Of a stretch of 64,000 nt of DNA, positions 6,722-53,659 are shown in pieces. The DNA is from an uncultured virus (IMG/VR IMGVR_UViG_3300032069_000008) (Duplodnaviria; Heunggongvirae; Uroviricota; Caudoviricetes). Both the position numbers and the translations under genes were made by a program. A model generated the notes under the pieces. That model saw only the letters and a list, made by a program, of their open reading frames with translations, did no database searches and had not been told where the DNA came from. The stretch is from IMG/VR virus record IMGVR_UViG_3300032069_000008, one strand, 5' to 3'. The stretch's first letter is position 1, and every line of letters begins with the position of its first letter.

Positions 6722-7393
6722 ATGGGTCTAACTATTCAATGGGCTGTGAGATGCAATGATGAAAAATGCATACAGCGAGTGTTCGATAGTTTGAAAAAGT
6801 TGGACAATACTTTTTTTGTGCAAGAAACAAAGTTGTCTATTGTTGCATGTACCGGAAAACAAGGTGAGACGGGAGTTTGCGTACCTCTGATTTTTGAGCC
6901 ATGGGAAAAGGCGTTGAAACAGTCTTATGTTATGCAGAGAGCAAGGTTTAAGTTATATGGTTTCGATGACCCCGTGTTTGAAGGAGAAGGTCCTTTCGGC
7001 CACCGGATGCCCGATAATATGATGAAACTGATTGATGGGCGGGAAGGAACATGCTCATGGGAAACACTCAAAGGTGAACCAGTTTTGGGCAAGGAAGGAT
7101 ACCAGACAGGAAATCATTCAAAAACACAATATGCGGGTATCGAACATCATTTGAGGACATGTAAGATATTAGATACAATCAGGGAAAATGCAGACAAAAC
7201 GGTAATCGGCGATGATGGTCATTACTGTGGCGAAGGCGACAAGCACAATATGGCTGAACTTATGGATAATTTTGAAGAGTATACTGAGTTAATGATAACT
7301 ATAGGCGGTAAACTAAGAAAGGCAGGATGGAACGACAAAGGCATATCCGGTAAAGGTGAAGAGACCTACCAGAGGACAAAGGCAGGCAAATAA
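6722..7393 (+). CDS. Hypothetical protein (mobile-element type)
   Basis: GAGG ribosome-binding site; KTQYA...H...LD...DDG.Y pattern. Confidence 0.6.
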   Translation: MGLTIQWAVRCNDEKCIQRVFDSLKKLDNTFFVQETKLSIVACTGKQGETGVCVPLIFEPWEKALKQSYVMQRARFKLYGFDDPVFEGEGPFGHRMPDNMMKLIDGREGTCSWETLKGEPVLGKEGYQTGNHSKTQYAGIEHHLRTCKILDTIRENADKTVIGDDGHYCGEGDKHNMAELMDNFEEYTELMITIGGKLRKAGWNDKGISGKGEETYQRTKAGK

Positions 7394-7412
7394 TAGTATT
7401 TTTGTGATAGAT

Positions 7413-7988
7413 ATGGAACTCGAACCCGGTCTTACAAACTATATAAAAGGCATAAAGTATCTCAAACGAGATAATCCTGAATATGTTGCGTATTATGATT
7501 TCATCCTAAATAATTCAAAGGAGAAAAAAAGAGGTCCACTAACTGAAGAAGCAGAAAAGGAACTTCAAAATCTGGGAAAATATCCGATTAAGGAATGCTA
7601 TCGAAACGCACAAACGCTTTCCATCTGCAATAAAGACATAAAATATATTGAAGGGTGGGTAGAACCAACAGACATTCCAATTCCTATAGAACATGCATGG
7701 AATGAATATAAAGGAAAAATAATAGATGTGACGTTGAAACAACGCAACGCAACGGACTTCTCCATTTGGGACGTCTCAGAACTGAGAAAAGAATTGGCAG
7801 AAAGAACTCACGAAGATGCAACATATCTTGGTGTTGAAATACCAACTATTTATGTTGCTAAATCAGTTTTAAAACTAAAAATGCACACAACATTGCTCCC
7901 CCACTTCTTTTTCAACTGTATCGTTCCAAAGAAGAGGAATGAATTAGTACCAGAAGAATGCGGCGACATGAAAAATTATAAATTTTGA
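7413..7988 (+). CDS. Putative transglutaminase/papain-like (Cys-His-Asp) protein
   Basis: ECYRNA...YIEGW...EHAWN...IIDVT motif order. Confidence 0.5.
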   Translation: MELEPGLTNYIKGIKYLKRDNPEYVAYYDFILNNSKEKKRGPLTEEAEKELQNLGKYPIKECYRNAQTLSICNKDIKYIEGWVEPTDIPIPIEHAWNEYKGKIIDVTLKQRNATDFSIWDVSELRKELAERTHEDATYLGVEIPTIYVAKSVLKLKMHTTLLPHFFFNCIVPKKRNELVPEECGDMKNYKF

Positions 7989-7994
7989 ATAAAA

Positions 7995-8069
7995 CGCATG
8001 GGAACGGATTTGAACCATTATCTTTCCGATTAACAGTCGGAAGCATTAGCCAGGTTATGCTACCCATGC
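7995..8069 (-). tRNA. tRNA-Asn(GTT)
   Basis: Acceptor GCATGGG/CCCATGC, loop CTGTTAA, T-loop TTCAAAT, G73. Confidence 0.92.
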
Positions 8070-8070
8070 A

Positions 8071-8142
8071 TGTAGATGTAGGGATTTGAACCCTAACATA
8101 TGGCTCCACAGACCATAATGCTACCATTACATCACATCTACC
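8071..8142 (-). tRNA. tRNA-His(GTG), possible encoded G-1
   Basis: Acceptor GTAGATG/CATCTAC, loop CTGTGGA. Confidence 0.9.
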
Positions 8143-8145
8143 ATA

Positions 8146-8217
8146 TGCCCCTGAAGGGAGTCGAACCCTCATCTTTGGATTAGAAGTCCATGATACTATC
8201 CACTATACTACAAGGGC
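8146..8217 (-). tRNA. tRNA-Arg(TCT)
   Basis: Acceptor GCCCTTG/CAGGGGC, loop CTTCTAA. Confidence 0.88.
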
Positions 8218-8218
8218 A

Positions 8219-8292
8219 TGGGTCTGTCAAGATTTGAACTTGAGTATCCGAGTTCCAGGCTCGGGAGGATAACCAGACTACCTCACAGACCC
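8219..8292 (-). tRNA. tRNA-Pro(TGG)
   Basis: Acceptor GGGTCTG/CAGACCC, arm CCGAG-CCTGGAA-CTCGG (C33). Confidence 0.88.
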
Positions 8293-8295
8293 AAG

Positions 8296-8366
8296 TGGAA
8301 GTAATAGGAATTGGACCCATATCTCTGGTTTTGGAGACCAGCATGTTACCACTACACCATACCTCC
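8296..8366 (-). tRNA. tRNA-Trp(CCA), intronless
   Basis: Arm CTGGT-CTCCAAA-ACCAG; atypical T-loop TCCAATT. Confidence 0.82.
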
Positions 8367-8367
8367 A

Positions 8368-8442
8368 CGAGCGTGGTGAGATTTGAACTCACGACCTCTT
8401 AGTTCGAAGCCAAGCCATCTGTCCAAGCTGATATACACGCCC
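8368..8442 (-). tRNA. tRNA-Arg(TCG)
   Basis: Arm CTTGG-CTTCGAA-CTAAG. Confidence 0.9.
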
Positions 8443-8443
8443 A

Positions 8444-8516
8444 CGGACCCGATGGGACTTGAACCCACTTCTTCTCCTTCGCACGGAGAAAGACTATCCA
8501 GCTATCCTACGAGTCC
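8444..8516 (-). tRNA. tRNA-Arg(GCG)
   Basis: Arm TCTCC-GTGCGAA-GGAGA. Confidence 0.87.
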
Positions 8517-8520
8517 AAAA

Positions 8521-8592
8521 TCTGGATGAACGGACTCGAACCGATATTTATTCGGTCTACAGCCGAACGCATAACCTTTCTGCCACATCCAG
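8521..8592 (-). tRNA. tRNA-Tyr(GTA), archaeal type
   Basis: C1:G72, A73, short variable loop, loop CTGTAGA. Confidence 0.9.
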
Positions 8593-8594
8593 AG

Positions 8595-8692
8595 TGCGAG
8601 TGGGAGGATTTGAACCTCCGTTCTCAGCTTTATCAGAGCTGTGCGGTGCCAGATTATAAGTCTGGTGCGAAACCAAGCTACGCCACACTCGC
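8595..8692 (-). tRNA. tRNA-Ile with two tandem anticodon arms (TAT and GAT)
   Basis: 98 nt: GCGAGTG TG GCG-TAGCTTGGTTT-CGC A CCAGA-CTTATAA-TCTGG CACCGCA CAGCT-CTGATAA-AGCTG AGAAC GGAGG-TTCAAAT-CCTCC CACTCGC A. Confidence 0.85.
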
Positions 8693-8694
8693 AA

Positions 8695-8769
8695 CGAACC
8701 TGGGGAGATTTGAACTCCCGACAACCTGCTTAAAAGGCAGGCGTGTTGACCTAGCTACACTACAGGTTC
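8695..8769 (-). tRNA. tRNA-Lys(TTT)
   Basis: Arm CCTGC-CTTTTAA-GCAGG. Confidence 0.92.
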
Positions 8770-8772
8770 ATA

Positions 8773-8846
8773 CGGACCTAAAGGGATTCGAACCCTTGAC
8801 TTCTGGATTAAGAGTCCAGCACGCTACCTAGCTACGTTATAGGTCC
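8773..8846 (-). tRNA. tRNA-Lys(CTT)
   Basis: Arm CTGGA-CTCTTAA-TCCAG. Confidence 0.92.
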
Positions 8847-8848
8847 AG

Positions 8849-8922
8849 AGACTCTCCCCTGATTTGAACAGGGAATCACCTGATTTGCAGTCAAGGGCGT
8901 TGCCAGATTCCGCCAGAGAGTC
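8849..8922 (-). tRNA. tRNA-Cys(GCA)
   Basis: Loop CTGCAAA, U73 discriminator. Confidence 0.92.
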
Positions 8923-8923
8923 A

Positions 8924-8997
8924 TAGGCGTGGAATGATTTGAACATTCAACCGATGCGTTGTAAACGCATTGCACCACCAGATTGTGCTACACGCCT
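8924..8997 (-). tRNA. tRNA-Val(TAC)
   Basis: Arm ATGCG-TTTACAA-CGCAT. Confidence 0.9.
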
Positions 8998-8998
8998 A

Positions 8999-9072
8999 TG
9001 GACTTGGTAGGATTTGAACCTACAACGTCTGCCTCTTCAGGACAGCGAACTCCCAGATTGTTCTACAAGTCC
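8999..9072 (-). tRNA. tRNA-Phe(GAA)
   Basis: Arm CTGTC-CTGAAGA-GGCAG. Confidence 0.92.
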
Positions 9073-9075
9073 TTA

Positions 9076-9147
9076 TGTTCCCATCGGGACTCGAACCCAA
9101 GTTTCCAGGCCGAGAACCTAGCGTGATTGCCTCTACACCATGGGAAC
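9076..9147 (-). tRNA. tRNA-Glu(CTC)
   Basis: Acceptor GTTCCCA/TGGGAAC, loop TTCTCGG. Confidence 0.88.
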
Positions 9148-9164
9148 GAAGTAGAAGTTTCCCT

Positions 9165-9488
9165 CTACTCTTTTATTTGTTCTGCAAGACTTGTTGGCAG
9201 ATTCAACTTTTTCAGCAATCTTCCTGTTACAACTATTCTTGCTTGTGAATAATTGAAAGGTTCATCCGTCCAGCATTTTGCTTCATCTTCAGCAAATGAT
9301 TTTCCATCACTTGCCTCAGCTTTCGTATATCCGACCCAGATTGGTAATCCTGTGTAAGTGCTTCTAGGTCCTACATGATTTGGTCTGTGATGATATTCGA
9401 TTACCATCTTATGTCCACTGGTTTCTATCACTCGCTTCTCATCCTTATCTTGAAGGATGGCATCATATATTTTTTGTTTATTTTTCAT
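9165..9488 (-). CDS. 107-aa virus-type hypothetical protein embedded in the tRNA array
   Basis: ATG at 9488 preceded by GGTGA; fills the gap between the two tRNA-Glu genes; AKC..D.FN....R motif. Confidence 0.7.
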   Translation of the reverse strand: MKNKQKIYDAILQDKDEKRVIETSGHKMVIEYHHRPNHVGPRSTYTGLPIWVGYTKAEASDGKSFAEDEAKCWTDEPFNYSQARIVVTGRLLKKLNLPTSLAEQIKE

Positions 9489-9502
9489 GGCTCTTTCACC
9501 AG

Positions 9503-9577
9503 TGTTCCCAATGGGATTTGAACCCATGACTGTGGGTCGAAAGCCCACTATCTTTGTCCGACCTAGACTATGGGAAC
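9503..9577 (-). tRNA. tRNA-Glu(TTC)
   Basis: Arm GTGGG-CTTTCGA-CCCAC. Confidence 0.9.
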
Positions 9578-9580
9578 GGA

Positions 9581-9653
9581 CGGTCTCATCGGGATTTGAA
9601 CCCAAATCGTCTGATAGACAGTCAGATATGATACCTGATTACACCATGAGACC
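9581..9653 (-). tRNA. tRNA-Asp(GTC)
   Basis: Arm TCTGA-CTGTCTA-TCAGA, G73. Confidence 0.9.
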
Positions 9654-9655
9654 TA

Positions 9656-9729
9656 TGGAGTTAGAGGGATTTGAACCCTCAGTCAACGATTTGCAAAACC
9701 GTTATCTTCCCTGGTTAGACCATAACCCC
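9656..9729 (-). tRNA. tRNA-Ala(TGC)
   Basis: G3:U70 in GGGGTTA/TAACTCC; loop TTTGCAA. Confidence 0.88.
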
Positions 9730-9730
9730 A

Positions 9731-9806
9731 TTACGGTGGGAGGATTTGAACCTCCATACTTTAGCTTATGAGGCTAATGGACATCCAAGTTGTCCGTCAC
9801 ACCGTA
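9731..9806 (-). tRNA. tRNA with CAT anticodon (elongator Met or Ile2)
   Basis: Arm TTAGC-CTCATAA-GCTAA; 4-nt acceptor/D linker (2 nt longer than usual). Confidence 0.8.
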
Positions 9807-9877
9807 TAATCCCGCCCGGGTTCGAACCGAGGTTTGCGGGTTCAAAGCCCTGTCATTGACCACTAGACTACGGGATT
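9807..9877 (-). tRNA. tRNA-Gln(TTG)
   Basis: A1:U72 (archaeal Gln identity), loop CTTTGAA. Confidence 0.85.
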
Positions 9878-9883
9878 TTATGA

Positions 9884-9949
9884 TAGTTCCGAACGGATTC
9901 GAACCGTTGTCACCGCCTTCAGGGGGCAGTATCGTTGGAACACGGAATA
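9884..9949 (-). pseudogene. Degenerate tRNA-Gln(CTG)
   Basis: Intact anticodon arm (loop CCCTGAA) and T arm; truncated D arm and only a 5-bp acceptor stem. Confidence 0.65.
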
Positions 9950-9950
9950 T

Positions 9951-10055
9951 GTCCCGACAGGTTTCGCTGTGAGAGGAGCGTACGCCTTCCCACACGCTTT
10001 AGTTGTTCTTTTGATTAAAGAACTTATAACCAGGGTCATCAGCCTTGCTGTCGGA
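9951..10055 (-). ncRNA. Candidate structured RNA within the tRNA array
   Basis: Closing helix TCCGACAG/CTGTCGGG with two internal hairpins. Confidence 0.45.
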
Positions 10056-10126
10056 TGCACCCAACGGGAATCGAACCCGTATATTTGCGTTGGAAGCGCA
10101 ACTCCCTACCATTGGGATATGGATGC
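10056..10126 (-). tRNA. tRNA-Gly(TCC)
   Basis: Arm TTGCG-CTTCCAA-CGCAA. Confidence 0.9.
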
Positions 10127-10184
10127 AGGCAAAGCGTCCCACGTCAAGAATAATCTTCTTTTCTGTTATTCTTCCATTTTTATA

Positions 10185-10255
10185 TGCGGATGCCGGGAGT
10201 TGAACCCAGACTGTCTGATTGGCAACCAGAAGTCATGCCGTTAGACCACAACCGC
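10185..10255 (-). tRNA. tRNA-Gly(GCC)
   Basis: Arm TCTGG-TTGCCAA-TCAGA. Confidence 0.87.
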
Positions 10256-10263
10256 TTAAAAAA

Positions 10264-10337
10264 AGCCACCGACCGGAATCGAACCGATATTTCGTTCCCT
10301 TACAGGGGGAGTGCAAGCCAATTTTTGCTACGGTGGC
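10264..10337 (-). tRNA. tRNA-Thr(TGT)
   Basis: Acceptor GCCACCG/CGGTGGC, U73, loop CCTGTAA. Confidence 0.87.
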
Positions 10338-10527
10338 ACTAAAAAGGGGAACTAATATTCCGTCGGTGTCTCGACACTATCTATATGTCTACCCCAGGCT
10401 ATCCCACTAAAAATCGCATTACACTTCTGAGACATACGTTGTCGAGACATTCTAAATCACTTTATTCCATCTCCAAAGAGTCTACTCATTAGTAAATGGA
10501 AATCATTTAAAAAGAAATAAAAAAGGG

Positions 10528-10570
10528 AGTATATAAAATTATTGACAGACCAAAACTCTTATAAATAAAA
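10528..10570. promoter_or_regulatory. Divergent TATA boxes for the two tRNA transcripts
   Basis: TTTTATATA on the minus strand (about 10530-10538); CAAAACT-CTTATAAATA on the plus strand (about 10552-10567). Confidence 0.55.
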
Positions 10571-10600
10571 ACAATATTTGCTTTTTAATGAAAAACAAAA

Positions 10601-10665
10601 TCTTATCCAGTTTGCTAGAGTCGTTACGGCTCAGTCCCTTACGGGACTAATTACATTGGATAAGA
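10601..10665 (+). ncRNA. Candidate structured RNA (multi-way junction) ahead of tRNA-Leu
   Basis: TCTTATCCA/TGGATAAGA stem enclosing GAGTCG-TTA-CGGCTC and AGTCCC-TTAC-GGGACT. Confidence 0.45.
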
Positions 10666-10673
10666 CTATTTTT

Positions 10674-10820
10674 GCCGACGTAGCCAAGTCTGACGAAGGC
10701 GCTAGACAGAATTTTTGGGCGAAGCTTAAAAACTTTGGGCGATGCTCAAACAATCGCCAACTTGGAGAGACCTAGTCCCGTAGGGGTTAAAACCCGTAGG
10801 TTCAAATCCTGCCGTCGGCA
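10674..10820 (+). tRNA. Intron-containing tRNA-Leu with alternative anticodon exons (TAA or CAA)
   Basis: Acceptor GCCGACG/CGTCGGC plus A73; archaeal Leu variable arm TCCCGTAGGGGTT. Exons 10674-10705, then 10724-10730 or 10744-10750, then 10770-10820, with BHB motifs at 30/31 and 37/38. Confidence 0.8.
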
Positions 10821-10824
10821 CTAG

Positions 10825-10910
10825 GCAGGAATGGCCGAGTGGTTAAAGGCGATAGGTTGCTAACCTATTGGTTGAAATATACCACGTAAGTTCAAATCTT
10901 ACTTCCTGCG
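10825..10910 (+). tRNA. tRNA-Ser(GCT)
   Basis: Arm ATAGG-TTGCTAA-CCTAT, long variable arm, G73. Confidence 0.92.
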
Positions 10911-10913
10911 TAG

Positions 10914-10995
10914 GGTGAGATGACAGAATCAGGGATTGTACCCCGCTTGAGACGGGTGCTTACTGGTGACAGTATTGAAGGTTCAAATCTCACCG
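10914..10995 (+). pseudogene. Degenerate tRNA-Ser(TGA)
   Basis: Acceptor GGTGAGA/TCTCACC, loop CTTGAGA and long variable arm present; 3' strand of the T stem missing. Confidence 0.7.
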
Positions 10996-24123: not shown

Positions 24124-24840
24124 ATGAGCTTTTGTGAAGAGCAAAAGAGAAACTTCGCACGGCTCAAATGCAACGTGTGGATAGTTCCAGAACCATATAA
24201 GACACCAGCAACAGATTATCCTCTCGAAAAGGTCGGTTCGGCAGAGTTGAAACGGTCATATGACCATCAAAACGTCTACGTCATGGAAGGGGTAAACAAC
24301 AGTGATTTTTGTTGCGTTGAAAACAAGATACCAATCACCTCTCTTAAAATTAATAAAACGACCTGGATGGTCGATATACCTTCTCATTGGGAAGGAATGA
24401 AAAGACTTGCAGAAAAAAGCAGAGGAAACGTTCTCGTCGGCGGTCTTGGTCTTGGATTGGTTTTACATGCCTTACGAAAGAATCCCAAAGTCAAAAAGAT
24501 AGATGTTTATGAACGTAATAAAGACGTAATAAAACTGATGAAGGACAAGATACCAAAAGACATCACAATCCATAATGAAAATGTATTTTCTTTTGCAGAT
24601 GAACGAATGTGGAAAAAAATAAAAGGGGAGGAAGTCACTGATTGCCCAGATACAATAATACTGGATACGTGGGTCGGTAAACCAGATAAAAAAATGTTTT
24701 ACGAAATGGTTGCAGCACATGGGAGTTTTTTGTTTGCTTGTCCTAATTCAAAAGTCTATATTTGGGGAACTAGAGACCCAGAATTGAACCCAGCTATTGA
24801 GAAAGAACCATGTGAAGTATTAAAGGAGATGAGAGTTTGA
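24124..24840 (+). CDS. Class I SAM-dependent methyltransferase-like protein
   Basis: VLVGGLGLG motif I, VYE acidic motif, IILD.W. Confidence 0.75.
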   Translation: MSFCEEQKRNFARLKCNVWIVPEPYKTPATDYPLEKVGSAELKRSYDHQNVYVMEGVNNSDFCCVENKIPITSLKINKTTWMVDIPSHWEGMKRLAEKSRGNVLVGGLGLGLVLHALRKNPKVKKIDVYERNKDVIKLMKDKIPKDITIHNENVFSFADERMWKKIKGEEVTDCPDTIILDTWVGKPDKKMFYEMVAAHGSFLFACPNSKVYIWGTRDPELNPAIEKEPCEVLKEMRV

Positions 24841-26219
24841 AAAAAGAAACTAAAAAAATATTAGCAATAACGTTAGTCCTTTTGCTGCTTCTCATAAGTT
24901 CGTTCTATGTATTATTTTTAAAGCCAGAACCTATGCAGACTACAGTAGATACACAAGGTGCTTGGTGGATAACACAAGCTTGGTTAGGATGGCGAAACCA
25001 GGATAATGTATATCAAAAATACGCCACGTTTTATGATGGTGAATCAATACAAGGCTGTGATTATACGCTTACATATAAACAGAGTGAAGGTTATGGGAAT
25101 CCTACGAAATGGAAGGTGACTGTAGAGATACAAGATAAAAACCATAATCGGGTTAAAGGAACTACTGTAACAGGCGGTGCATTGGCTGTTGGACAGACGG
25201 TTACTGCTGTGTGCGATTTCAGTCCTATAGAGTTATCATCAACTAATCGCCTTCATGGTGACGTCTGGATAGAAATATACAATACTAATGTGGGTTGGGA
25301 GGGTGGTCAATGTGTATCGAATCTTCCAATTAATGTTCAACCAAATTTACCTAGTTTTACATTAGATTATTATCAGGTGTCTGCAACAACTGCTAAGGCG
25401 GGTGACACTCTTACTGTTTCATATCAGTATACAAATACTGGCAGGGCATCCGGAACATTATACGTTGCCTTGTGGGCTGATAAATGGAAAAGAGGAGAAA
25501 ACTATGGGGACATGGAACTTTATACTAAAAAATCAGAGCAAATAGCGGTCGGCGGTACCCTTTCTGATACTATGTCGGTTCAAATTTTAGATAATTATGC
25601 GTCAGATGATAATATTATAAGATTGGGTCTGAACAATGAAATAAAGCAAATAACATACACACCGCCGATATACTCACTGACCATCGTGACTGTACCAGCA
25701 CAATGCCTTGTAACTACCTCTGGTAAATCAGTCAATTCAGGCACGGCTGGTGCGGTATTCAGCCTGGGAAAGGGAACATATAGTGTTACTGTCACAAAGG
25801 ATAAATATTCCCCGAAAACAGAGACAGTTGCACTTGACCAATCAAAAACAGTAATAGTAACACTATCACAAATAATATACGATTTAGAGATTAATACAAC
25901 GCCACTCAGCACGGTTGAAGTTAAAAATGTGGATACGAAATACGCAGATGAAAATGGAACTGTGACCTTCAAATTAATACCAAACACATATGCTATTGTA
26001 ATCTCAAAATCAGGATATACTGCAAAGTCACTATCAATAACTGTTGATAAAAACATGATTTATACACAAGCATTGGAAAAAAGCACAGTACCAACGCCAC
26101 CACCATCTACACCACCACCTACAACACCACCCACCAAAAAGACACCGGGATTTGAAACCGCGATATCGCTAATCGCCTTAGCACTTGTTGTTATTGCATG
26201 GAGGAAACGCCGTGAGTGA
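24837..26219 (+). CDS. Cell-surface protein with PEGA-like repeats and PGF-CTERM
   Basis: N-terminal TM, Pro/Thr linker, TPGFE plus TM plus RKRR. Confidence 0.85.
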   Translation: MKKETKKILAITLVLLLLLISSFYVLFLKPEPMQTTVDTQGAWWITQAWLGWRNQDNVYQKYATFYDGESIQGCDYTLTYKQSEGYGNPTKWKVTVEIQDKNHNRVKGTTVTGGALAVGQTVTAVCDFSPIELSSTNRLHGDVWIEIYNTNVGWEGGQCVSNLPINVQPNLPSFTLDYYQVSATTAKAGDTLTVSYQYTNTGRASGTLYVALWADKWKRGENYGDMELYTKKSEQIAVGGTLSDTMSVQILDNYASDDNIIRLGLNNEIKQITYTPPIYSLTIVTVPAQCLVTTSGKSVNSGTAGAVFSLGKGTYSVTVTKDKYSPKTETVALDQSKTVIVTLSQIIYDLEINTTPLSTVEVKNVDTKYADENGTVTFKLIPNTYAIVISKSGYTAKSLSITVDKNMIYTQALEKSTVPTPPPSTPPPTTPPTKKTPGFETAISLIALALVVIAWRKRRE

Positions 26220-26604
26220 AAATACCTTAAAATGGAATATACTACATCCTCAGCCAAGGATTATTCCAAATAAAGTTACAGAGGTAGAAAGCTTTATCAT
26301 ATCCCATCCAAAGGGGAAACATATCCACATCGAAATCGTTGACGTCTCATATGGTGGCACTCACGATTATTGGATTATGGGGGACGTCGCTATACAAAAA
26401 GATAAAATAAAAGATGCGAAAGACTTTTTAAAAGGAATAGAAGGGTGTTCAATATATAGCGAACATGAACATGCCCTGAGTATCGACCTACACCCCATCT
26501 GCAAATTCCATACGTCACGAGAGGCTGATAAGGGAATACCAAAACTTTGGGAATGGGCTAATGAATATGGCGGTAGAGATGAGAAAAATCCATCCAGCAT
26601 TTAA
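26212..26604 (+). CDS. Hypothetical protein
   Basis: GTG start after GGAGG, overlapping the upstream stop. Confidence 0.55.
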   Translation: MSENTLKWNILHPQPRIIPNKVTEVESFIISHPKGKHIHIEIVDVSYGGTHDYWIMGDVAIQKDKIKDAKDFLKGIEGCSIYSEHEHALSIDLHPICKFHTSREADKGIPKLWEWANEYGGRDEKNPSSI

Positions 26605-27253
26605 ACAATTTATCCTCAATGATGCAGTAAAAAAATGGGACAGGATACTAAAAGAAGAGGGATGCCCAGAGGGTATTAAAGGGGGGGTTTGTTTTTCGAC
26701 AAGTAATGCATTTTGCAAAATATTAGACAGAGATTTTGAGATACCTTGTACTCTGGAGATGGTAGAGACACTTGCAGGAAACAAAAAGGCAATAGGGCTA
26801 TTCGACTATTATTACAGAGAAGGGGACTTGGGGGCATTTTTCATTCACCTTGAACATATAAATATGGAGAAAGGTAAAGAAAACCTGACGTCAGATGACC
26901 CTGTTGTAGTTGGGATGGGGGCAGGTGGACAGCCAGACCAATTTCATTTTGTGATGAACCTATATCGTCATGGCGAAGCCGTAGATTTGACATTGGATAG
27001 AGTAAAGCGACCACAGTGGGGAATAGACTGTAACAATTATTGGGCTAAATACGATAATGAGTTTTATAAGGAAGATGCAATAATAAGTGATTCAATACGA
27101 AACGCATCTAATTGTGTAGTTATGACAACAAAGAAAAAGTCGTTGGGGCGTGTGGGAGTAGAACCAGAAAGGTATCAAAGGCAGGAACTTAGATTGAGAG
27201 ATTATATCCATGGAGAATTACGAAGAAGAAAGATACCTATATTTTTTAGGTGA
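26579..27253 (+). CDS. Hypothetical protein, possible Cys-His-Asp fold
   Basis: GVCF...FHFV...VDLT motif order. Confidence 0.5.
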   Translation: MRKIHPAFKQFILNDAVKKWDRILKEEGCPEGIKGGVCFSTSNAFCKILDRDFEIPCTLEMVETLAGNKKAIGLFDYYYREGDLGAFFIHLEHINMEKGKENLTSDDPVVVGMGAGGQPDQFHFVMNLYRHGEAVDLTLDRVKRPQWGIDCNNYWAKYDNEFYKEDAIISDSIRNASNCVVMTTKKKSLGRVGVEPERYQRQELRLRDYIHGELRRRKIPIFFR

Positions 27254-30964: not shown

Positions 30965-31969
30965 GTGATGACGATGAAACAAACAGTCTGCAATTACTGT
31001 AAAAAAAAAATTAAGCGTTTTCCTTGTAAAATACGTAAAATTAATTTTTGTAACAAAAAATGTTTATCTAGTTGGTATAAATTAAAAAGAAAGTCAATTA
31101 CTTGTAACAATTGCGGTAAAAAGATTGATATTATTCACGCAAAAATAAAAAATCACAACTATTGTTCAAATGCTTGTTATCATTTATCACGAAGAAATAA
31201 TCGAATAATCAATAAAATTCCAACAAAAGGAGAATTAATCGAACAATATGTAAAACAAAATAGAACATTAAAAGAAATAGGAAAATGCTACGGTTTGGCA
31301 AGGGAAACTACATATTTTTATATCAAAAAATATAATATTAGTTACGAAAAAAAATGGTCTCTTACAAAAATAAATAAAAGACAAACATTTTTCTTAGGGT
31401 ATGTAGTCGGTGCTATTTTTGGTGATGGATGGTTTTATAAAAAGGCATATAGAACATATTTTTGTTCTACAGAGTTATCTTCAATATCAGTATTTATGAG
31501 TATGCTGTCAGAGATATATCCAGGTTGTTTCAGGATACGAACTCAAGAAAGACCAAATGTAAAAATATTATATACCATAGAAATTCCATGCAAAGCATTA
31601 TATGAGTTTCTTTCACCATATAAAGAAAAATCACGATTTTTTATACCAGATTTTTTAAATACAAAGGAAAGCAAAGCAGGATTTTTATCGGGCTTTTTTG
31701 ATGCTGAAGGCTGCATACAAATTTATAACAATAGATTAGCATCATTATATATCAGTTCTAAATATTATGAAAATCTTATTCCAATTCAAAAAATGTTAAC
31801 CGAATTTGGAATAGAATCTAAATTGAATAGAGTAAAAACACGCATGGAAAGCAGAATATATTTAGGACAAAACTACGAAAATCTAAAAAAAATTAAGAAA
31901 AATATAAACTTTCATTCTTTCAAAAAAATGAAAACACTGGAGGATGCAATATGCTTAAAACAACAATAG
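30965..31969 (+). CDS. Free-standing LAGLIDADG homing endonuclease with N-terminal Zn-finger repeats and HTH
   Basis: YVVGAIFGDG and FLSGFFDAEG motifs; CxxC..FC...C repeats. Confidence 0.88.
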   Translation: MMTMKQTVCNYCKKKIKRFPCKIRKINFCNKKCLSSWYKLKRKSITCNNCGKKIDIIHAKIKNHNYCSNACYHLSRRNNRIINKIPTKGELIEQYVKQNRTLKEIGKCYGLARETTYFYIKKYNISYEKKWSLTKINKRQTFFLGYVVGAIFGDGWFYKKAYRTYFCSTELSSISVFMSMLSEIYPGCFRIRTQERPNVKILYTIEIPCKALYEFLSPYKEKSRFFIPDFLNTKESKAGFLSGFFDAEGCIQIYNNRLASLYISSKYYENLIPIQKMLTEFGIESKLNRVKTRMESRIYLGQNYENLKKIKKNINFHSFKKMKTLEDAICLKQQ

Positions 31970-33403: not shown

Positions 33404-33664
33404 ATGGTAACTGACCCAATAACTGACCTATTTAGTGGAACTGGCACAGAACAGGAAAAAAAGAAAGCTGAAGCATATTGGTCTGCAAGCCTGAATGTAA
33501 AATGTCCATATTGCGGGCACATTGTCGATATCCTTGATACAGATGAATGGAGCAATGACTGGGCATATAAATTCGGCAGATTGGAAACCAGAGCAAAGAT
33601 AGATGCAGAAGTGCAGTGCCCAAAATGCAAATTAATCTTTGATGTGGAGACTGTGATATGGTAG
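33404..33664 (+). CDS. Zn-ribbon protein
   Basis: CPYC...CPKC. Confidence 0.6.
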   Translation: MVTDPITDLFSGTGTEQEKKKAEAYWSASLNVKCPYCGHIVDILDTDEWSNDWAYKFGRLETRAKIDAEVQCPKCKLIFDVETVIW

Positions 33665-34986
33665 AGACAATATGCGATAACTGTGGAAAAAAAATTGAAC
33701 GAAATAAATACGAAATAGAAACATGTGAGCGTCATTTTTGCAACAGAAAATGCTATGGGAAATGGCGTTCCCAAAATAGAATTTGTGCCAACCATCCTAA
33801 TTGGATAGATGTACCAAAAAACGAAATAATTGATTTGTATAAATCAGGTTGCACAATTACTAAGATTAGCAAAATGCATCATATATCACAAGGAACCATA
33901 TACAGTAGATTTAAAAAATGGGACATACTCTTAATTAATAAAAATGCTGAGATAAAATGCGACAATTGTGGAGAAAAAACCAAAAGAAGAAATTGTTTAA
34001 TAAAAGCATGGAAGCACCATTTTTGTAACAAGAAATGCTATGATGAATGGAGGATGTACCCAATAAAATTAGAACCAACTTATTCCCTTGGCTATTTAAT
34101 TGGTGTTATTTTTGGAGACGGACATATAAATTTATCTCAAAATAGGATAATTATAACAACTGCGGATATAGACTGGATTGGAACGCTTATAACGATAATT
34201 AATGAAATTTGTCCCCAAATATCAACAGTCGGCATCCAATCATATGAATATTGGGGCAAAGCCGTCCAAGTGGGTATTTACTCTAAAAAATTATGTAAAG
34301 TTCTCAAACCCTTTAAACTAGAACCACACAGATATAATATCCCGCCCTTTCTAAATACGCCAGAATCATTAGCAGGTTTAGTAGCAGGCTTGATAGATAC
34401 AGATGGATGCATACAAATCCATAGACAAAATATTAATATTGAACTGACTTCAAAATATGTTGAAAATCTAATTCCAATTGAAAAAATATTAAAAAATATT
34501 TTTGAGATAAACTCAAAAATTTACTCTCCCCCGTCTCGTGAATCTTCGGTTTTAAGGATTGCCGGCTATGCAAATTTGTTTAGATTTGAACAGAAGATAG
34601 GGCTAATAATGACAAGGAGACAAAATCTACTGCAACAAGCAATTACCGAAGCAGAAAAAAAATATAAACGAAGAGAGTACAGTAAGCAAAGAATAGAAGA
34701 AATGGTACATCTTTATAAAAATAAAAATCTTTCTTTGAGACAAATAGCAAATAAATTAGATGTAAGTAAAGACTATGTTTGTATAGTTGCAAGAAGAAAC
34801 AACCTTTCAAGAAGAACAATACATACGCCAGAGCAATATAATGACGTAATTAATTTACGAAAAATGGGGCATACTATCGAAGAGATATCATTTCTCACAA
34901 GTATTAGTATTCATGCTATCCGAGAATGGATTTATAGAAACAGAAAACCGCTATCAGTGCACATGCTGGAGGCTGAAAATGGTTGA
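33658..34986 (+). CDS. Free-standing LAGLIDADG homing endonuclease with Zn fingers and HTH domains
   Basis: YLIGVIFGDG and LVAGLIDTDG motifs; similar to 30965-31969. Confidence 0.9.
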   Translation: MVETICDNCGKKIERNKYEIETCERHFCNRKCYGKWRSQNRICANHPNWIDVPKNEIIDLYKSGCTITKISKMHHISQGTIYSRFKKWDILLINKNAEIKCDNCGEKTKRRNCLIKAWKHHFCNKKCYDEWRMYPIKLEPTYSLGYLIGVIFGDGHINLSQNRIIITTADIDWIGTLITIINEICPQISTVGIQSYEYWGKAVQVGIYSKKLCKVLKPFKLEPHRYNIPPFLNTPESLAGLVAGLIDTDGCIQIHRQNINIELTSKYVENLIPIEKILKNIFEINSKIYSPPSRESSVLRIAGYANLFRFEQKIGLIMTRRQNLLQQAITEAEKKYKRREYSKQRIEEMVHLYKNKNLSLRQIANKLDVSKDYVCIVARRNNLSRRTIHTPEQYNDVINLRKMGHTIEEISFLTSISIHAIREWIYRNRKPLSVHMLEAENG

Positions 34987-41038: not shown

Positions 41039-41111
41039 AGCGTGGTAGTGTAGCGGACAACACGTTTGCCTCATGAGCAAATAATCATTGGTTCAAATCC
41101 AATCCACGCTA
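41039..41111 (+). tRNA. tRNA-Met(CAT), isolated
   Basis: Acceptor AGCGTGG/CCACGCT (A1:U72), arm TTTGC-CTCATGA-GCAAA, T-loop TTCAAAT. Confidence 0.9.
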
Positions 41112-45163: not shown

Positions 45164-45245
45164 ATGGATAATGGATGGATAGCAATATTTATATAATCCA
45201 CTGCATATATATTTTGTGTTGAAAACAAATAGAGTAAAAATAAAT

Positions 45246-46466
45246 ATGCAAATAACAACAAAACGTGTTGAACGGATATGGTTGAAACCATCCGATGAAC
45301 TGAATCGGATGTGCCACATTGCAAAAAACCTATACAATGAAGCAACATATCTGATACGCCAGGAATTATTCAACACGGGCCGGCGGATTAGATACAATGA
45401 ACTAGCCAAAGTGTTGAAGGATTCAGAGAACTATAAGATTCTTCCTGCAAAGACGGGCCAACAAATTCTTAAATATGTTGATTGGAACTGGAAAAGTTTT
45501 TTCAATGCCATGAAACAGTACAAAAAAATTCCCAGTGCTTTCTTTGGGCGTCCTGGCATTCCGAAATACAAACATAAAGATGGAGTATTCATGCTGATTT
45601 TCACTAATCAGCAAGTGAGCATCAAAAACAACGTACTAATATTCCCTAAAAAGATGGATGAAGTTCTGCCAAAGGTCAGAGTGAGACCTATTATAGAAAA
45701 ACTGAGGGAAGTACGTCTTATTCCACGTGCAGTTGGCTATATTCTTGAGATTGTTTACGATAAAATAATTAATGCACCGAAGCGAGACAAACGTATTGTG
45801 GCTGGTATCGATTTGGGTGTTCGCAACCTTGCAACTATCGTAGATAACACAGGTGGTAAGCCTATTGTTATCAAAGGCGGGACTGTGAAGTCAATCATCC
45901 AATTCTACCAGAAAGAAAGGGCACGACTGCAAAGCATCTATGATTTGCAGAAGCAAGACAAACAAGGCATGAAGATGAAACGATTGTCGGACAAGTATAA
46001 AAAGAAGATGCACGATTATCTGCACAAGGTTAGCAACGCCATTATAAAGCATCTGGACAGACGTGGTATCGGTCTCTTGGTCATCGGGTACAATGATGAC
46101 TGGCAACACAAAGCAACTCTTGGTAGACGAAATAATCAAACATTCTCATCAATACCGTATAGACAGCTCATCAACATGCTTCAATATAAAGCAGAGGAAC
46201 AGGGAATTAATACTATGATGCCAGACGAGAGCCATACTTCTGTGTGTTCATTTTTCGATAACGAAACGATAGAACATCATGATGAGTATGTTGGAAAACG
46301 GAAAGGCGGATTGTTCAGAACAGCAAAAGGGCATGTTGTGAATGCAGACGTGAACGGTGGATTTGACATCATGAAGAAAGCAGTCCCAAATGCCTTCCAG
46401 AAATGGATGGCGGACGGGATAGAGGGTGCCGTGGGTCATCCATTGAGATTGAAGGTCGTGCGATGA
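45246..46466 (+). mobile_element. tnpB: Stand-alone TnpB (IS200/IS605 family, IS1341-like) RNA-guided nuclease
   Basis: AKNLYN helix, RuvC-I GIDLG, ESHTS, RuvC-III NADVNG; no adjacent tnpA. Confidence 0.9.
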
Positions 46467-49691: not shown

Positions 49692-51149
49692 ATGCAAGAA
49701 AAGAGCAAATTCGTGTTAATCATAGCTGTAGTTGTAGTAGCCATATTACTTTTCAGTACAAATCCAAACCTTTTTAACCCTCTTGCAGCAGACCCAACAT
49801 ATCATACAGGTATTCCTTTGGCTGATGTAAACAACTTGAAAACTTTGCATTATGTTGAAGATGTATGGCATGGTAACGATATTCCAGGTACTGTTGATTG
49901 GCCGGATAAAGAACTGATGGCTGATACGGTATATGTGACATCTTTTTCAGGTGCTACACTTACAGGTGCATTGAGCGAAAGAATAGCAATCCAGGGAAAT
50001 GTATATGAAAATTCAGGGATAGAAACAAATATCCCAGAAACAGCATATTACAAAGTAGAGCTGAAAGAAGCAGGTAGAGATTGGATTACTATAGTAGATT
50101 TGAATGTAGTAGACACAAGATACGCAAAAGTTACTGGCGGTGTGGGTTCTAAAACACTTAACTATAATCCCGTTACGCCACCATGGGGCGACAGTTATCA
50201 ACGAATGGACTGTCCGGCAATACAAGTACAGATAGTTGGTGCGCATGTTGGTGCATTGAGGATATCCTTTGTGGTTTATTTCCGTGGCTTTCTTGGAATT
50301 GAGCATTGGTATAAAACGATGTCAAGAGATTATTGTTATTTGATTTCTGGTCAAGGGGCAATCAATATCGCTGGGCATGCAAGAACAGATGTTGTGATGT
50401 TTGAAAACGGAGAAACAGTACCGATACAAGTGACTGCTGATTACAGTGGTCCAGCCATAGGAGAATCAGGGAAATGGCAATTATGGGCATTCCCACAAGA
50501 TGGTCGCCCAGGCATGATGCTGAAAGAATGGACTTACGATTACTTCCGTGAAACATACAATTGGAAACTGCCAGATAATGCATGGGTCAGAGGTACAAGT
50601 GACAGCAAATGGAGGATAGAACTTAGAAATACGTTATTCTCAACAGATGCAATAATGGTCAATACGATTGATGTTAGGGCAAATGCTCCACCAACACCAA
50701 AGGTTACTGCATCGGTCACACAATTGAGTTTGAACAACCAAGTCACAATCACTATGTCGGGTGAAATAAATAGTCTTACCAATGAATCCATATCTTATTT
50801 CTGGGTTCGATGTGTATACTTTTCCGATAATGATAATTATCAATTCTTATATCAAAAAGTCACGGTATCCCCAGGAACTTTAACGTTTACTCCACCCAAA
50901 GCAGGTAAATTTAAAGTACAGGTATGGTCACATGACGTAGCAGGAAGGGAATCAGAGAAACCGGCGGAAATAACTATAGAAGTCCTTCCTTCTGGAGCAA
51001 TCCTTCCAACGCCTATAATTCCTGGTGGTTGGGAGATTTGGCTTCTGTTTGCAATTATAATAATTGTCATTATCGGAGTAGTTATGTATTTCTATCAAAA
51101 AAGAGGCATGTGGAAAACGCCCAAATTGTTTAGGAGGAAGAAACGATGA
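49692..51149 (+). CDS. Surface protein with N- and C-terminal TM helices and Ig-like domain
   Basis: Hydrophobic termini, beta-rich body. Confidence 0.78.
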   Translation: MQEKSKFVLIIAVVVVAILLFSTNPNLFNPLAADPTYHTGIPLADVNNLKTLHYVEDVWHGNDIPGTVDWPDKELMADTVYVTSFSGATLTGALSERIAIQGNVYENSGIETNIPETAYYKVELKEAGRDWITIVDLNVVDTRYAKVTGGVGSKTLNYNPVTPPWGDSYQRMDCPAIQVQIVGAHVGALRISFVVYFRGFLGIEHWYKTMSRDYCYLISGQGAINIAGHARTDVVMFENGETVPIQVTADYSGPAIGESGKWQLWAFPQDGRPGMMLKEWTYDYFRETYNWKLPDNAWVRGTSDSKWRIELRNTLFSTDAIMVNTIDVRANAPPTPKVTASVTQLSLNNQVTITMSGEINSLTNESISYFWVRCVYFSDNDNYQFLYQKVTVSPGTLTFTPPKAGKFKVQVWSHDVAGRESEKPAEITIEVLPSGAILPTPIIPGGWEIWLLFAIIIIVIIGVVMYFYQKRGMWKTPKLFRRKKR

Positions 51150-53659
51150 ATAAGAATACAAAAATAATAGGAATAATTGCAATTCTTATCGTAGTGGCTT
51201 TGTTATTTACCAGTTCGCCTACGTTGATACAAATATTATCAAATCCATCTACCGCTACAGTGGATTATTCTGCCGTCGGAACGCATTTTAATCACTGGAC
51301 TGGTGGAACACAGGGTAAAACACTGGTTGCTGGAACAACTGGTGTTGAGCTATTTGACCAGCAAACTTATGTAACAGCATGGTACAGCAGTACAAAGCGC
51401 AGTGAAAAGATTGGACTGCATGGCTCGTTAGATTATTATCAGCAATGGGAAACTGGGGCTGTGGGGCGTTATCCAATGGTCCTCCTCAACAATTACTGGT
51501 GGGATATAAAATATGTTGATACATCGGGCGTTTCTCACAAGTTAGCATGGGATGGCGGTTACGATAGCAATTACATAGATTTTGTTAGTGAACCAGGATT
51601 TATTACGAATTTTAACAGGCAGAAGTTCCCAGGTATTGCTGGTCAATACCAGCCAAACGGTGCTAGTTGGACCGCTGGGCAGAACTTAGTGGGCGACTGG
51701 TGGGTATATAATAGAAATTCGGCAGGAAATGAAGTTAAAGCATATACAAAATATCCATCTGCATTGCCAACAGAAACCTCTTTATTTTATTTAAAAGGAC
51801 CATTAGATGGATACATGACGGCAGATTTATATGTACGTTGGGCAGATTACAATTCGTGGTTTGGAGGTTTTCTGGGGTTAGTATTTTATTGGCAATATTA
51901 TCCAACAAATACTAAAATCGCATCAGATACCGCATTGCTAAACTCTGGTGATGGGCAAGTTGATGTCGATGGATACAATAAAGTAGGTACTAGTGGTGGA
52001 GCAAATGCTGAAGGTACAGGCGAATATTACGCAAAATATCTTTACCAAGAAGGTCAGACTGTCAAATTCAATTTGAAGTTAGGTGCGGCTGGTATTACAT
52101 CACCCGTAGCAGCAAATACAGATAAATCAAAACAATGGAAACTAGAAATCATCAAACCAGACGGCACTTCATATACGGATACCGCACAAGGCTATCCTAA
52201 ATATTTCACCACAGAGAAGACTACAACAACTGCAACATGGAAGATACCGATGGATGCAGTTGCAAGCGGTGGAACGGATGCTGGATGGAAGATTAGACTT
52301 ACTAATGGTCTGATGGTGCAATCCGAAGTAAAAGTATTTGTCGTTAAAGATTTGAGTGTAGTGCCCGGCAAAGCAAAGATAACATCTCCAATTGGCGGAA
52401 CTAAATTCATACTGGGGAACGCAATATCCGTGTATTGTACGGCGTCGCCAAATCCAATAACTAACAGTCCTATAGCAAAATTCGATGGGTGGGCCAAATA
52501 CTATAGCACGACAAGTGCCTCTTATGCTTTTTCATCGTCATCAATCACTACAAAAGACAGCCAGGGTCAGTTTTACTTTACATTCACTCCAGACCGTGTT
52601 GGAAACATCTACCTGATGGTTCATGCAATCGACAGTGCAGGTCAACCAGGCGGAGAATCAGACGTGGTAACAATTTCTGTTGTTGCAACGCCTAAATATC
52701 TGGTTACTGTATTAGTATCTGATAGTGTCACAAATGCGGCAATCGATAGTGCTACGGTAATCTTTGGTTCCTATTCACAACCAACAGTAAATGGTGTGAC
52801 ACAATTCACAATCGAATCTGGCAATTATGCTCTTATCGTCTCTAAATCAGGATATAACACATATTACGGCGGAACAATTGTCATAACCGCAGCTAAGAAC
52901 ATACCCGTATCTCTTGTTTCAAGCACGCCAATACCTCCCCCACCTCCAACAGATACCGATAGTGACGGGATACTCGACACAGTGGATAATTGTCCCAATG
53001 CGTTCAATCCATATCAAGAGGATGCCGATGGAGACGGAATTGGTGATGTATGTGAAGGCGTACCAATGCCACCGTCAAAATACACGATAACGTTCACTAT
53101 TTCTACAGATGCAGGTAAATTGGCAGGTGCCACAGTCACATTAGGAAATGTCAGCGGAACAGTAGATGAAGGAACAACAGATGCAAATGGATTAGTGGCC
53201 TTGCAAGTCCCTACTGGAATTTATTCATTGACAGTCACGGCAACAGACTATCACGACCATGAAGAATCAATGGTCATAACGGCAGATGAACCAAAAGAAG
53301 TGTTGATGATATCAGATAACATAATAACATATGATTTATCAATAACTGTAGTTGCAGCAGGGCAGACCCAAGTGCCAATTGCAGGTGCATTAGTTGATGT
53401 AGATGGTACAACAGACACTACTGATACATACGGCATAGCCCGATTTAATTTACAACCTGGTTCAAAAACAATAAAAGTTACAAAGGCAGGATATTCAGAT
53501 GCTACGTCAACAGTCCAATTAGATTCTTCAAGCCAAACAGCAACAATTACAATGACAAGTAAAGGTATACCCGGATTTGAACTAATAAGTTTAATCGTTG
53601 CAGTTGGAGTTACACTAGCACTGTTAAGAAGAAGAGACAAAAAGGAAAAGAAAGAATGA
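51146..53659 (+). CDS. Surface protein with TSP type-3 Ca-binding repeat, carboxypeptidase-regulatory-like domains and PGF-CTERM
   Basis: DTDSDGILDTVDNCP..NP.QED.DGDGIGDVC; IPGFE plus TM plus RRR. Confidence 0.85.
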   Translation: MNKNTKIIGIIAILIVVALLFTSSPTLIQILSNPSTATVDYSAVGTHFNHWTGGTQGKTLVAGTTGVELFDQQTYVTAWYSSTKRSEKIGLHGSLDYYQQWETGAVGRYPMVLLNNYWWDIKYVDTSGVSHKLAWDGGYDSNYIDFVSEPGFITNFNRQKFPGIAGQYQPNGASWTAGQNLVGDWWVYNRNSAGNEVKAYTKYPSALPTETSLFYLKGPLDGYMTADLYVRWADYNSWFGGFLGLVFYWQYYPTNTKIASDTALLNSGDGQVDVDGYNKVGTSGGANAEGTGEYYAKYLYQEGQTVKFNLKLGAAGITSPVAANTDKSKQWKLEIIKPDGTSYTDTAQGYPKYFTTEKTTTTATWKIPMDAVASGGTDAGWKIRLTNGLMVQSEVKVFVVKDLSVVPGKAKITSPIGGTKFILGNAISVYCTASPNPITNSPIAKFDGWAKYYSTTSASYAFSSSSITTKDSQGQFYFTFTPDRVGNIYLMVHAIDSAGQPGGESDVVTISVVATPKYLVTVLVSDSVTNAAIDSATVIFGSYSQPTVNGVTQFTIESGNYALIVSKSGYNTYYGGTIVITAAKNIPVSLVSSTPIPPPPPTDTDSDGILDTVDNCPNAFNPYQEDADGDGIGDVCEGVPMPPSKYTITFTISTDAGKLAGATVTLGNVSGTVDEGTTDANGLVALQVPTGIYSLTVTATDYHDHEESMVITADEPKEVLMISDNIITYDLSITVVAAGQTQVPIAGALVDVDGTTDTTDTYGIARFNLQPGSKTIKVTKAGYSDATSTVQLDSSSQTATITMTSKGIPGFELISLIVAVGVTLALLRRRDKKEKKE

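Follow-up and report, generated by a model that had tools for sequence, protein, structure and literature searches.

Why should a single tRNA gene carry two complete anticodon arms, and which of the two would serve decoding? The question is raised by a 98-nt tRNA-Ile gene in DNA of an uncultured virus assigned to Caudoviricetes (IMG/VR record IMGVR_UViG_3300032069_000008), of which a stretch of 64,000 nucleotides, referred to here as the window, was analysed; the parent contig of the window is ~77 kb long. In this gene, one acceptor stem, one D arm and one T arm enclose an arm with the anticodon UAU and, after it, an arm with GAU, both of them perfect 5-bp/7-nt arms (Table 1). Of all sense codons AUA is the hardest to decode, and cells read it either with a modified C34 (lysidine or agmatidine) or with a UAU tRNA in combination with an adapted IleRS. 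In the element under study, AUA is the commonest Ile codon (487 of 993, or 40 per 1000, in 36 ORFs with 12,078 codons), and the two-armed gene is the only Ile tRNA found in the window.

Table 1. Positions of the tRNA-Ile gene, its structural parts and other features of the window discussed in the text.
Feature	Position	Strand	Remarks
Whole tRNA-Ile(UAU) gene with extra GAU arm	8595..8692	-	98 nt; Rfam RF00005 and family model R1
Acceptor stem, 5' strand (RNA 1-7)	8686..8692	-	7/7 pairs with 8596-8602
Discriminator A (A73)	8595	-	same in 55/57 unique family members listed
D arm (RNA 10-26)	8667..8683	-	GCG:CGC, 3 bp; loop with GG; followed by A26
Anticodon arm (RNA 28-44)	8649..8665	-	CCAGA/CUUAUAA/UCUGG, 5/5 bp; anticodon UAU (reads AUA)
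Linker CACCGCA, 7 nt	8642..8648	-	second copy of the D-stem 3' strand and N26 (CGCA)
Extra arm in the variable region (RNA 52-68)	8625..8641	-	CAGCU/CUGAUAA/AGCUG, 5 bp; GAU in loop
T arm (RNA 74-90)	8603..8619	-	5 bp; loop UUCAAAU; 5-nt linker before the T arm
BHB-like motif (RNA 14-56)	8642-8679	-	with both copies of CGCA excised, the D arm becomes degenerate
tRNA array including the Ile gene	7994..10995	.	23 of the 24 ARAGORN calls of the window; further, the Ile gene, one interrupted Leu gene and one weak Ser-like match
Surface, LAGLIDADG-like and TnpB genes, jointly	24837-26219, 51146-53659, 30965-31969, 33658-34986, 45216-46466	+	

The original prediction, which had been made from the sequence alone, placed both arms in one tRNA, and its coordinates and anatomy proved exact. 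The Rfam tRNA model RF00005 scores the gene at 59.1 bits (gathering score 29) over model positions 1-71 of 71. In this alignment the UAU arm takes the anticodon position, and 26 nt, the GAU hairpin among them, are inserted into the variable region. The acceptor/T branch is of the 7/5 type with all pairs formed (7/7 and 5/5), and the variable region comprises 29 nt rather than the 4-5 nt of a short variable loop. The minimum free energy fold of the RNA is the five-helix cloverleaf (-34.1 kcal/mol, z = -2.44); 5 of 200 shuffled versions fold at least as well as the native sequence, and the predicted ensemble pair probabilities are 0.97 for the extra arm and ~0.80 for the D arm formed with the first CGC. 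The loop of the extra arm, CUGAUAA, is a perfect copy of a tRNA-Ile(GAU) anticodon loop, including U33, A37 and A38, and the CGCA that had been noticed before each arm is indeed present, in full as CGCAC. As had been claimed, in silico loss of either 24-nt block leaves a canonical 74-nt tRNA-Ile, with GAU or UAU, according to ARAGORN. The two 24-nt units (RNA 18-41 and 42-65) agree at 14 of their 24 positions. Because a letter-perfect CUGAUAA loop is combined with a copied D strand and this match between the units, the sequence suggests that the Ile gene arose by a tandem duplication spanning D strand and anticodon arm. It is thereby an extreme form of the design discussed below. ARAGORN in its default mode missed the gene, and a GAT or TAT anticodon occurs in 0 of its 24 calls across the window, which bears out the claim that there is no other such tRNA. 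When introns were allowed, the same program forced an Ile(UAU) with a 16-nt intron, rejected for its poor stem, and called a tRNA-Pro with a 1174-nt intron, rejected as spurious.

Relatives of this design were found by scanning IMG/VR. The first scan, for CUUAUAA followed by 20-45 nt and a T loop, did not demand GAU; it returned at least 117 loci, with gap lengths peaking at 31-32 nt. Among the matches listed, 94 loci had at least 4 of the 5 anticodon-stem pairs, and these contained 49 unique variable regions, 46 of which form hairpins. GAU or GAC is present in the loop of 34 of the 46 unique hairpins among the matches listed. The loops are mostly 7 nt long (CAGAUUA 15, UAGAUUU 4, CCGAUUA 2, CUGAUUA 1 and CAGAUAA 1 among the matches listed), and the discriminator base is A73 in 55 of the 57 unique full-length tRNAs listed in which 6 or 7 of the 7 acceptor pairs form. 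GAU and GAC are absent from 12 of the 46 unique hairpins listed; L035, L046, L087, L094 and others form a group of their own, long-armed UAU tRNAs with GUAG or UAG in the extra hairpin. The second scan was limited to long arms (gap of 34-45 nt) and returned at least 114 loci; 41 of the matches listed are tRNA-like, with 19 unique variable regions, and their hairpin loops contain GAU in 16 of the 19 and GAC in 2 of the 19. The original prediction had raised the case of homologues that keep the second stem and lose its GAU; in both scans, the relatives among the matches listed keep GAU. One relative, L215, nearly reproduces the geometry of the Ile gene: it is 98 nt long, with linkers of 8 nt before and 5 nt after a hairpin of 5 bp whose loop is CAGAUAA.

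An alignment of 52 unique members, chosen for GAT in the variable region, was folded with RNAalifold. The extra arm was predicted with strong covariation and without a broken cell in 3 of its pairs, and the middle pair is GC in 31 members, AU in 8, UA in 5, UG in 5 and CG in 3. The invariance of GAU in this alignment is circular, because the members were chosen for GAT; the figures to be read for its conservation are those of the two scans given above. A covariance model, R1, was built from the 52 members with the Ile gene of the window excluded. Its top match in the window is 8595-8692 (48.4 bits, E = 1e-8, model positions 1-89 of 89), the next one reaching 31 bits, and in the R1 alignment the UAU arm is the anticodon arm and the GAU hairpin is the extra arm of the family. 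The covariance search that had been proposed as a check thus reveals a conserved architecture whose stems covary, and since this is so in many viral contigs, the two-arm design is more than chance. The earlier argument that two unlike, fully paired stems argue for selection holds in its conclusion, which the comparative data support, and not in its reasoning, as the stems alone are not decisive. For the GAU loop, too, the comparison of homologues indicates that it is under selection.

The Ile gene has the CUUAUAA loop in a 5-bp arm, the GAU hairpin in the variable region, the 7/5 body, A73 and the R1 score that characterize these relatives. We conclude that it very probably belongs to a class of viral tRNA-Ile(UAU) genes with a GAU-displaying arm, which is defined here from IMG/VR and for which no published account was found in the openly searchable literature. 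The nearest class member is ~70% identical to it (in a gapped alignment, among the matches listed), so the Ile gene is a distant and possibly convergent member. The acceptor 5' strand is shared by one subgroup. As a member the gene is unusually complete, and it differs from the bulk of the class in its loop, which is CUGAUAA as opposed to mostly CAGAUUA (without U33 and A37), UAGAUUU or AGAUG, and in its 5' linker, which has 7 nt and contains the copy of the D-stem strand, whereas most class members have linkers of 2-5 nt. Its context, which is archaeal, would also set it apart. Each of the five class-member records examined has a tRNA array, with between 4 and 31 genes; Orc1/Cdc6 was found in 0 of these five records, all of which are fragments.

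The window has 37% G+C, consists for the most part of ORFans and carries nearly all of its genes on one strand. A gene for a 432-aa initiator of the Orc1/Cdc6 family (TIGR02928, E = 1e-41) is located at 1373-2671 on the minus strand; the atlas clusters closest to this protein are all archaeal, with Bathyarchaeota and two phyla of Asgard archaea, Promethearchaeota and Hodarchaeota, in the lead. Two surface proteins have ends resembling PGF-CTERM or Heimdall-CTERM signals, with sub-threshold scores of 20.1 and 21.7 bits (cut-off 24). Because of the Orc1/Cdc6 initiator, its archaeal atlas neighbours and the CTERM-like signals, the sequence indicates that the element is archaeal, either viral or extrachromosomal, with a host that possibly belongs to Asgard or Bathyarchaeia. 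Further genes encode two LAGLIDADG endonuclease-like proteins and one TnpB (RNA-guided endonuclease family); as a host marker, TnpB had no relative in the species genomes. The tRNA genes of the array are tightly packed and cover nearly all amino acids, with isoacceptor genes side by side (Lys UUU/CUU, Glu CUC/UUC and three Gly). The whole window yielded no tRNA for Thr, and the array gaps 9148-9501 and 10338-10673 contain no tRNA match at E up to 1.

The array includes another gene with a duplicated anticodon region, a 147-nt class II tRNA-Leu gene at 10674-10820 (+) that was missed by ARAGORN and by the default filters of Rfam and scores 35.3 bits in the sensitive mode of Rfam. Its anticodon region of 66 nt holds two tandem 20-nt modules that are alike at 16 of 20 positions, one with the anticodon loop CU-UAA-A and the other with CU-CAA-A. 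A scan for bulge-helix-bulge (BHB) motifs identified a single 5' site, which follows position 32, and two alternative 3' sites, which follow positions 50 and 70 and of which one precedes each module; both pairings of these sites have a central helix of 4/4 pairs, an H1 of 3 or 2 bp and an H2 of 4 bp. A second intron at 37/38 shows a relaxed BHB, with 3/4 central pairs and, once the first splice has taken place, a 6-bp H1, and both double-splice products are recognized by ARAGORN as clean 90-nt tRNA-Leu species, with UAA or CAA. UUA and UUG are the top Leu codons of the element. Going by its sequence, the Leu gene is a possible case of alternative tRNA splicing, or else of an intron grown by duplication; no description of anticodon choice by alternative tRNA splicing was found in the openly searchable literature.

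The Ile gene itself has no orthologue among the sequences searched, namely IMG/VR, GenBank phages and the syntenic place on the JGI contig L010. The exact two-arm pattern occurs at 0 loci in IMG/VR. A generic version of the pattern, in which the second loop had to be a perfect CUGAUAA, gave 5 IMG/VR loci, which were dismissed as chance occurrences in AT-rich coding DNA where there is no tRNA, and 3 loci in species genomes, none of them a tRNA by model R1. Comparison with GenBank phages (blastn, distant mode) yielded only short matches to single tRNAs, in 11 records; the Ile gene was left uncovered, and no close phage emerged. The flanking proteins have 1, 2, 1 and 0 relatives in IMG/VR, all remote; the loci of those scanned for tRNAs (L006-L008) contain none, and one parent record has 5 tRNAs, none of them Ile. 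The family of the downstream protein is represented in metagenomes by 7 loci, with 0 tRNAs. A 70%-identical relative of the downstream protein is encoded on L010, the only syntenic relative found. On this contig the genes neighbouring the array are kept, the segment corresponding to 7356-10910 (the tRNA array and one ORF) is absent, and in place of it L010:3216-3950 is a homologue of window 26561-27253. Because L010 keeps the flanks and swaps this segment, the tRNA array is a variable cassette. Among public contigs compared at 80% likeness, 8595-8692 was not covered at high identity, the matches being mostly tRNAs of other organisms, and fragments of ~99% identity from a second habitat correspond to neighbouring tRNAs only.

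We favour, with moderate confidence, the reading that the gene as a whole is a functional AUA tRNA-Ile(UAU) of an archaeal element, with an extra arm that presents the cognate GAU. Its parts are not equally secure. That the gene decodes AUA as Ile is likely, and the predicted isoleucine acceptance fits with A73 and the anticodon-type loops; that the GAU arm acts as a determinant for IleRS is put forward tentatively. The UAU arm, standing in the anticodon position, would decode AUA, and the GAU hairpin would provide IleRS with the anticodon identity element on which it depends, since the ordinary enzyme takes G34 (or lysidine or agmatidine) and charges U34 poorly. In the published descriptions on which we draw, the IleRS of E. 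coli charges tRNA-Ile(UAU) inefficiently, Mycoplasma mobile needed Arg865 in its IleRS (PMC3575796), and the strong Ile determinants are the anticodon and A73 (PMC9976931). A mobile element has to rely on the IleRS of its host, which it cannot change, and by such an arm it would gain a means of reading AUA that is independent both of TiaS/TilS modification and of an adapted IleRS. Two points count against the IleRS role. Most class loops are CAGAUUA, which lacks U33 and A37 and is thus an unfaithful anticodon loop. By tRNA geometry, a hairpin in the variable arm sits far from the usual position of the anticodon-binding domain of IleRS.

It was also considered that the RNA might toggle between two cloverleaves that share all helices but the D stem, which we regard as rather unlikely. 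With the second CGC closed, IleRS and the t6A37 enzymes would see a tRNA-Ile(GAU), and with the first CGC closed, UAU would decode AUA; in a stronger form of this explanation both arms would decode, and all three Ile codons would be read. The D stem can indeed close on either CGC, the sequence UGG-NNN-CGCAC being found twice in the Ile gene, once before each arm, and the perfect loop with U33, A37 and A38 is what a second anticodon arm would require. The fold with UAU in the anticodon position (fold A, -32.6 kcal/mol) is predicted to be favoured by 3.1 kcal/mol over the fold with GAU there (fold B, -29.5 kcal/mol), with D-stem ensemble probabilities of ~0.80 and ~0.14. For the class, the D stem was placed in each member, and the 114 parsed members were reduced to 35 unique combinations of D stem and linker. 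Where linkers have at least 5 nt, 7 of 16 combinations form at least 3 alternative D pairs (permutation mean 2.52, P = 0.0026), and where they have at least 6 nt, 5 of 8 do so, compared with 1.68 expected (P = 0.004); exact D-strand copies were found for three other D stems, AGC (L215), AGUC (L235) and AAAC (L152), in addition to CGC in the Ile gene. However, linkers are shorter than 5 nt, too short for a D-strand copy, in 19 of the 35 combinations, the large GGAGA subfamily has 0 alternative pairs, and an alternative pairing probability of at least 0.1 is reached in just 2 of the 52 aligned class members. The enrichment may moreover be partly compositional, since linkers rich in A readily form pairs with D strands reading GUUU, the copies may be relics of duplication, and the 17-nt hairpin that fold B places in the D loop would be expected to upset D-loop/T-loop contacts. 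We read the D-strand copies as traces of an origin by tandem duplication; they are a minority feature that the class does not require, and alternative D pairing may possibly be maintained by selection. The conformational switching put forward in the original prediction is thus weakly supported, by a predicted minor cloverleaf of the Ile RNA and by D-strand copies in some long-linker relatives, and does not extend to the class at large; its corollary, decoding of AUU and AUC by the second arm, found no support. A wider reading joins the two unusual genes of the array: the Ile RNA would toggle (charged by way of GAU and decoding by way of UAU, or decoding with both arms), the Leu precursor would be alternatively spliced at its duplicated BHB sites to a UAA or a CAA form, and the element would compress its isoacceptor set by two kinds of two-anticodon tRNA genes. 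We consider this joint reading quite unlikely.

Three further explanations were considered. One of the 24-nt blocks might be cut out, either in the manner of an archaeal intron or through some other nuclease together with a ligase, to yield a 74-nt Ile(GAU) and/or Ile(UAU); the canonical products of either deletion, the archaeal host and the neighbouring tRNA-Leu gene with its BHB-type introns speak for such processing, as does a report of numerous hidden intervening sequences in Asgard tRNA genes, located for the most part in the D arm (10.64898/2026.10.13.758758). Because the host is archaeal, every boundary pair in the Ile RNA was checked for BHB geometry. No BHB was found for any excision that gives a canonical tRNA, including both 24-nt blocks, in agreement with the earlier observation that neither excision has a strict motif, and the best 24-nt excision among the windows listed has 3/4 central pairs and no flanking helices. 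The sole full BHB geometry (cuts after RNA 23 and 51; an H1 of 4 bp, a central helix of 4 bp and an H2 of 2 bp) would ruin the D arm and is probably a chance occurrence; we estimate that ~0.4 such motifs are expected by chance. In class members, furthermore, the extra arm is kept as a covarying part of the tRNA. Since the excisions with canonical products lack a BHB, alternative processing by the splicing endonuclease, which had been part of the original prediction, is unsupported, and processing as an explanation of the gene is highly improbable. The gene might instead be non-functional, by a deletion that fused neighbouring UAU and GAU Ile genes, as a decaying duplication or as an assembly chimera. 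Adjoining isoacceptor genes and a degenerate Ser-like gene in the same array, together with the failure to find an orthologue or, among the contigs compared, one that covers the gene at high identity, would fit this; but all five helices are intact, the architecture fits an independently defined conserved class, and the gene is the sole Ile tRNA in a near-complete array of an element whose top Ile codon is AUA, which makes a non-functional gene very unlikely. Deletion fusion of two Ile genes had been the leading explanation and was dropped when the conserved class was found. It is also unlikely that the GAU arm has a role other than recognition by IleRS, be it as a handle for modification enzymes, protection from anticodon nucleases of the host, an antideterminant that wards off MetRS or other synthetases, or a site of ribosome or elongation factor binding. 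Such a role would agree with loops in which GAU is kept while the flanking letters, mostly CA-GAU-UA, are unlike those of a true anticodon loop; yet the triplet that is kept is exactly the cognate Ile anticodon.

Several known systems share single features with the Ile gene as it is understood under the favoured reading, an AUA-reading tRNA-Ile(UAU) with a GAU-displaying arm. Class I tRNA-Ile(UAU), or tRNA-Ile3, of M. mobile, Bifidobacterium, Neorickettsia, Nanoarchaeum equitans as well as Korarchaeum cryptofilum is described (PMC3575796, PMC8450103) as reading AUA with UAU and without lysidine or agmatidine, as having A73 and as having a 7/5 branch, in all of which the Ile gene would resemble it; it has, however, a variable loop of 4-5 nt and, in M. 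mobile, an adapted IleRS with Arg865, whereas the Ile gene has a 29-nt region with a GAU hairpin and resides on a mobile element. The (8/4) allo-tRNA(UAU) group (Mukai et al. 2017, PMC5389517) likewise combines a long extra arm with UAU and comes from metagenomes and phages. Allo-tRNAs are characterized there by an 8/4 or 9/3 branch and a Ser/Sec-like body, unlike the 7/5 branch and A73 of the Ile gene; two allo-tRNA(UAU) rows of the supplement have U73 and a V-arm loop without GAU, and the main text, as far as it was accessible to us, refers neither to GAU nor to IleRS. The nematode nev-tRNA-Ile(UAU) (PMC3333845, PMC4300185) also has a class II shape together with UAU, but it is eukaryotic, has a Leu-type V-arm and is charged with leucine in vitro, and the available parts of these papers describe no anticodon mimic in the arm. 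In class II tRNAs (Leu, Ser and bacterial Tyr), the variable arm is a synthetase identity element (PMC9976931), to which the GAU arm would be akin if it does address IleRS; class II arm loops have 3-5 nt and contain no anticodon copy, whereas the arm of the Ile gene copies a class I anticodon arm. The multi-intron and split tRNA genes of archaea (Thermoproteales, Nanoarchaeum, ARMAN and Asgard; PMC4090602, 10.64898/2026.10.13.758758) resemble the Ile gene in being archaeal and in containing extra internal sequence that hides the gene from standard finders; their insertions are described as located at BHB motifs and removed, whereas the Ile gene has no fitting BHB. In the openly searchable full-text literature, to which the search was confined, we found no description of a GAU-bearing extra arm.

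The Ile gene extends the viral class to an archaeal element, seems to preserve the duplication behind its extra arm and offers an RNA with two predicted folds. If the favoured reading is true, a second arm with the cognate anticodon would be a simple way round anticodon recognition by the synthetase, and it would provide a natural precedent for separating the anticodon that the synthetase reads from the one that decodes, which is of interest to genetic-code engineers. A toggling Ile RNA or an alternatively spliced Leu gene, if either is real, would amount to a new way to encode tRNAs.

Some further tRNA-like sequences of the window deserve mention. The weak Ser-like match at 10914-10995 (+) scores 20.6 bits, below gathering. 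Its loop is CUUGAGA (Ser UGA), its variable region is long and its T-stem 3' strand is seemingly missing; it is probably a degenerate gene. At 9884-9949 (-), there is a tRNA-like match of 66 nt with a score of 27.1 bits, just under gathering. The second-best R1 match in the window, at 31 bits, is a tRNA(CAU) at 9731-9806 (-), whose T arm is identical to that of the Ile gene over 17 nt and the following CAC; this tRNA might be a tRNA-Ile2(CAU) instead of a Met tRNA. Another CAU tRNA is located at 41039-41111 (+).
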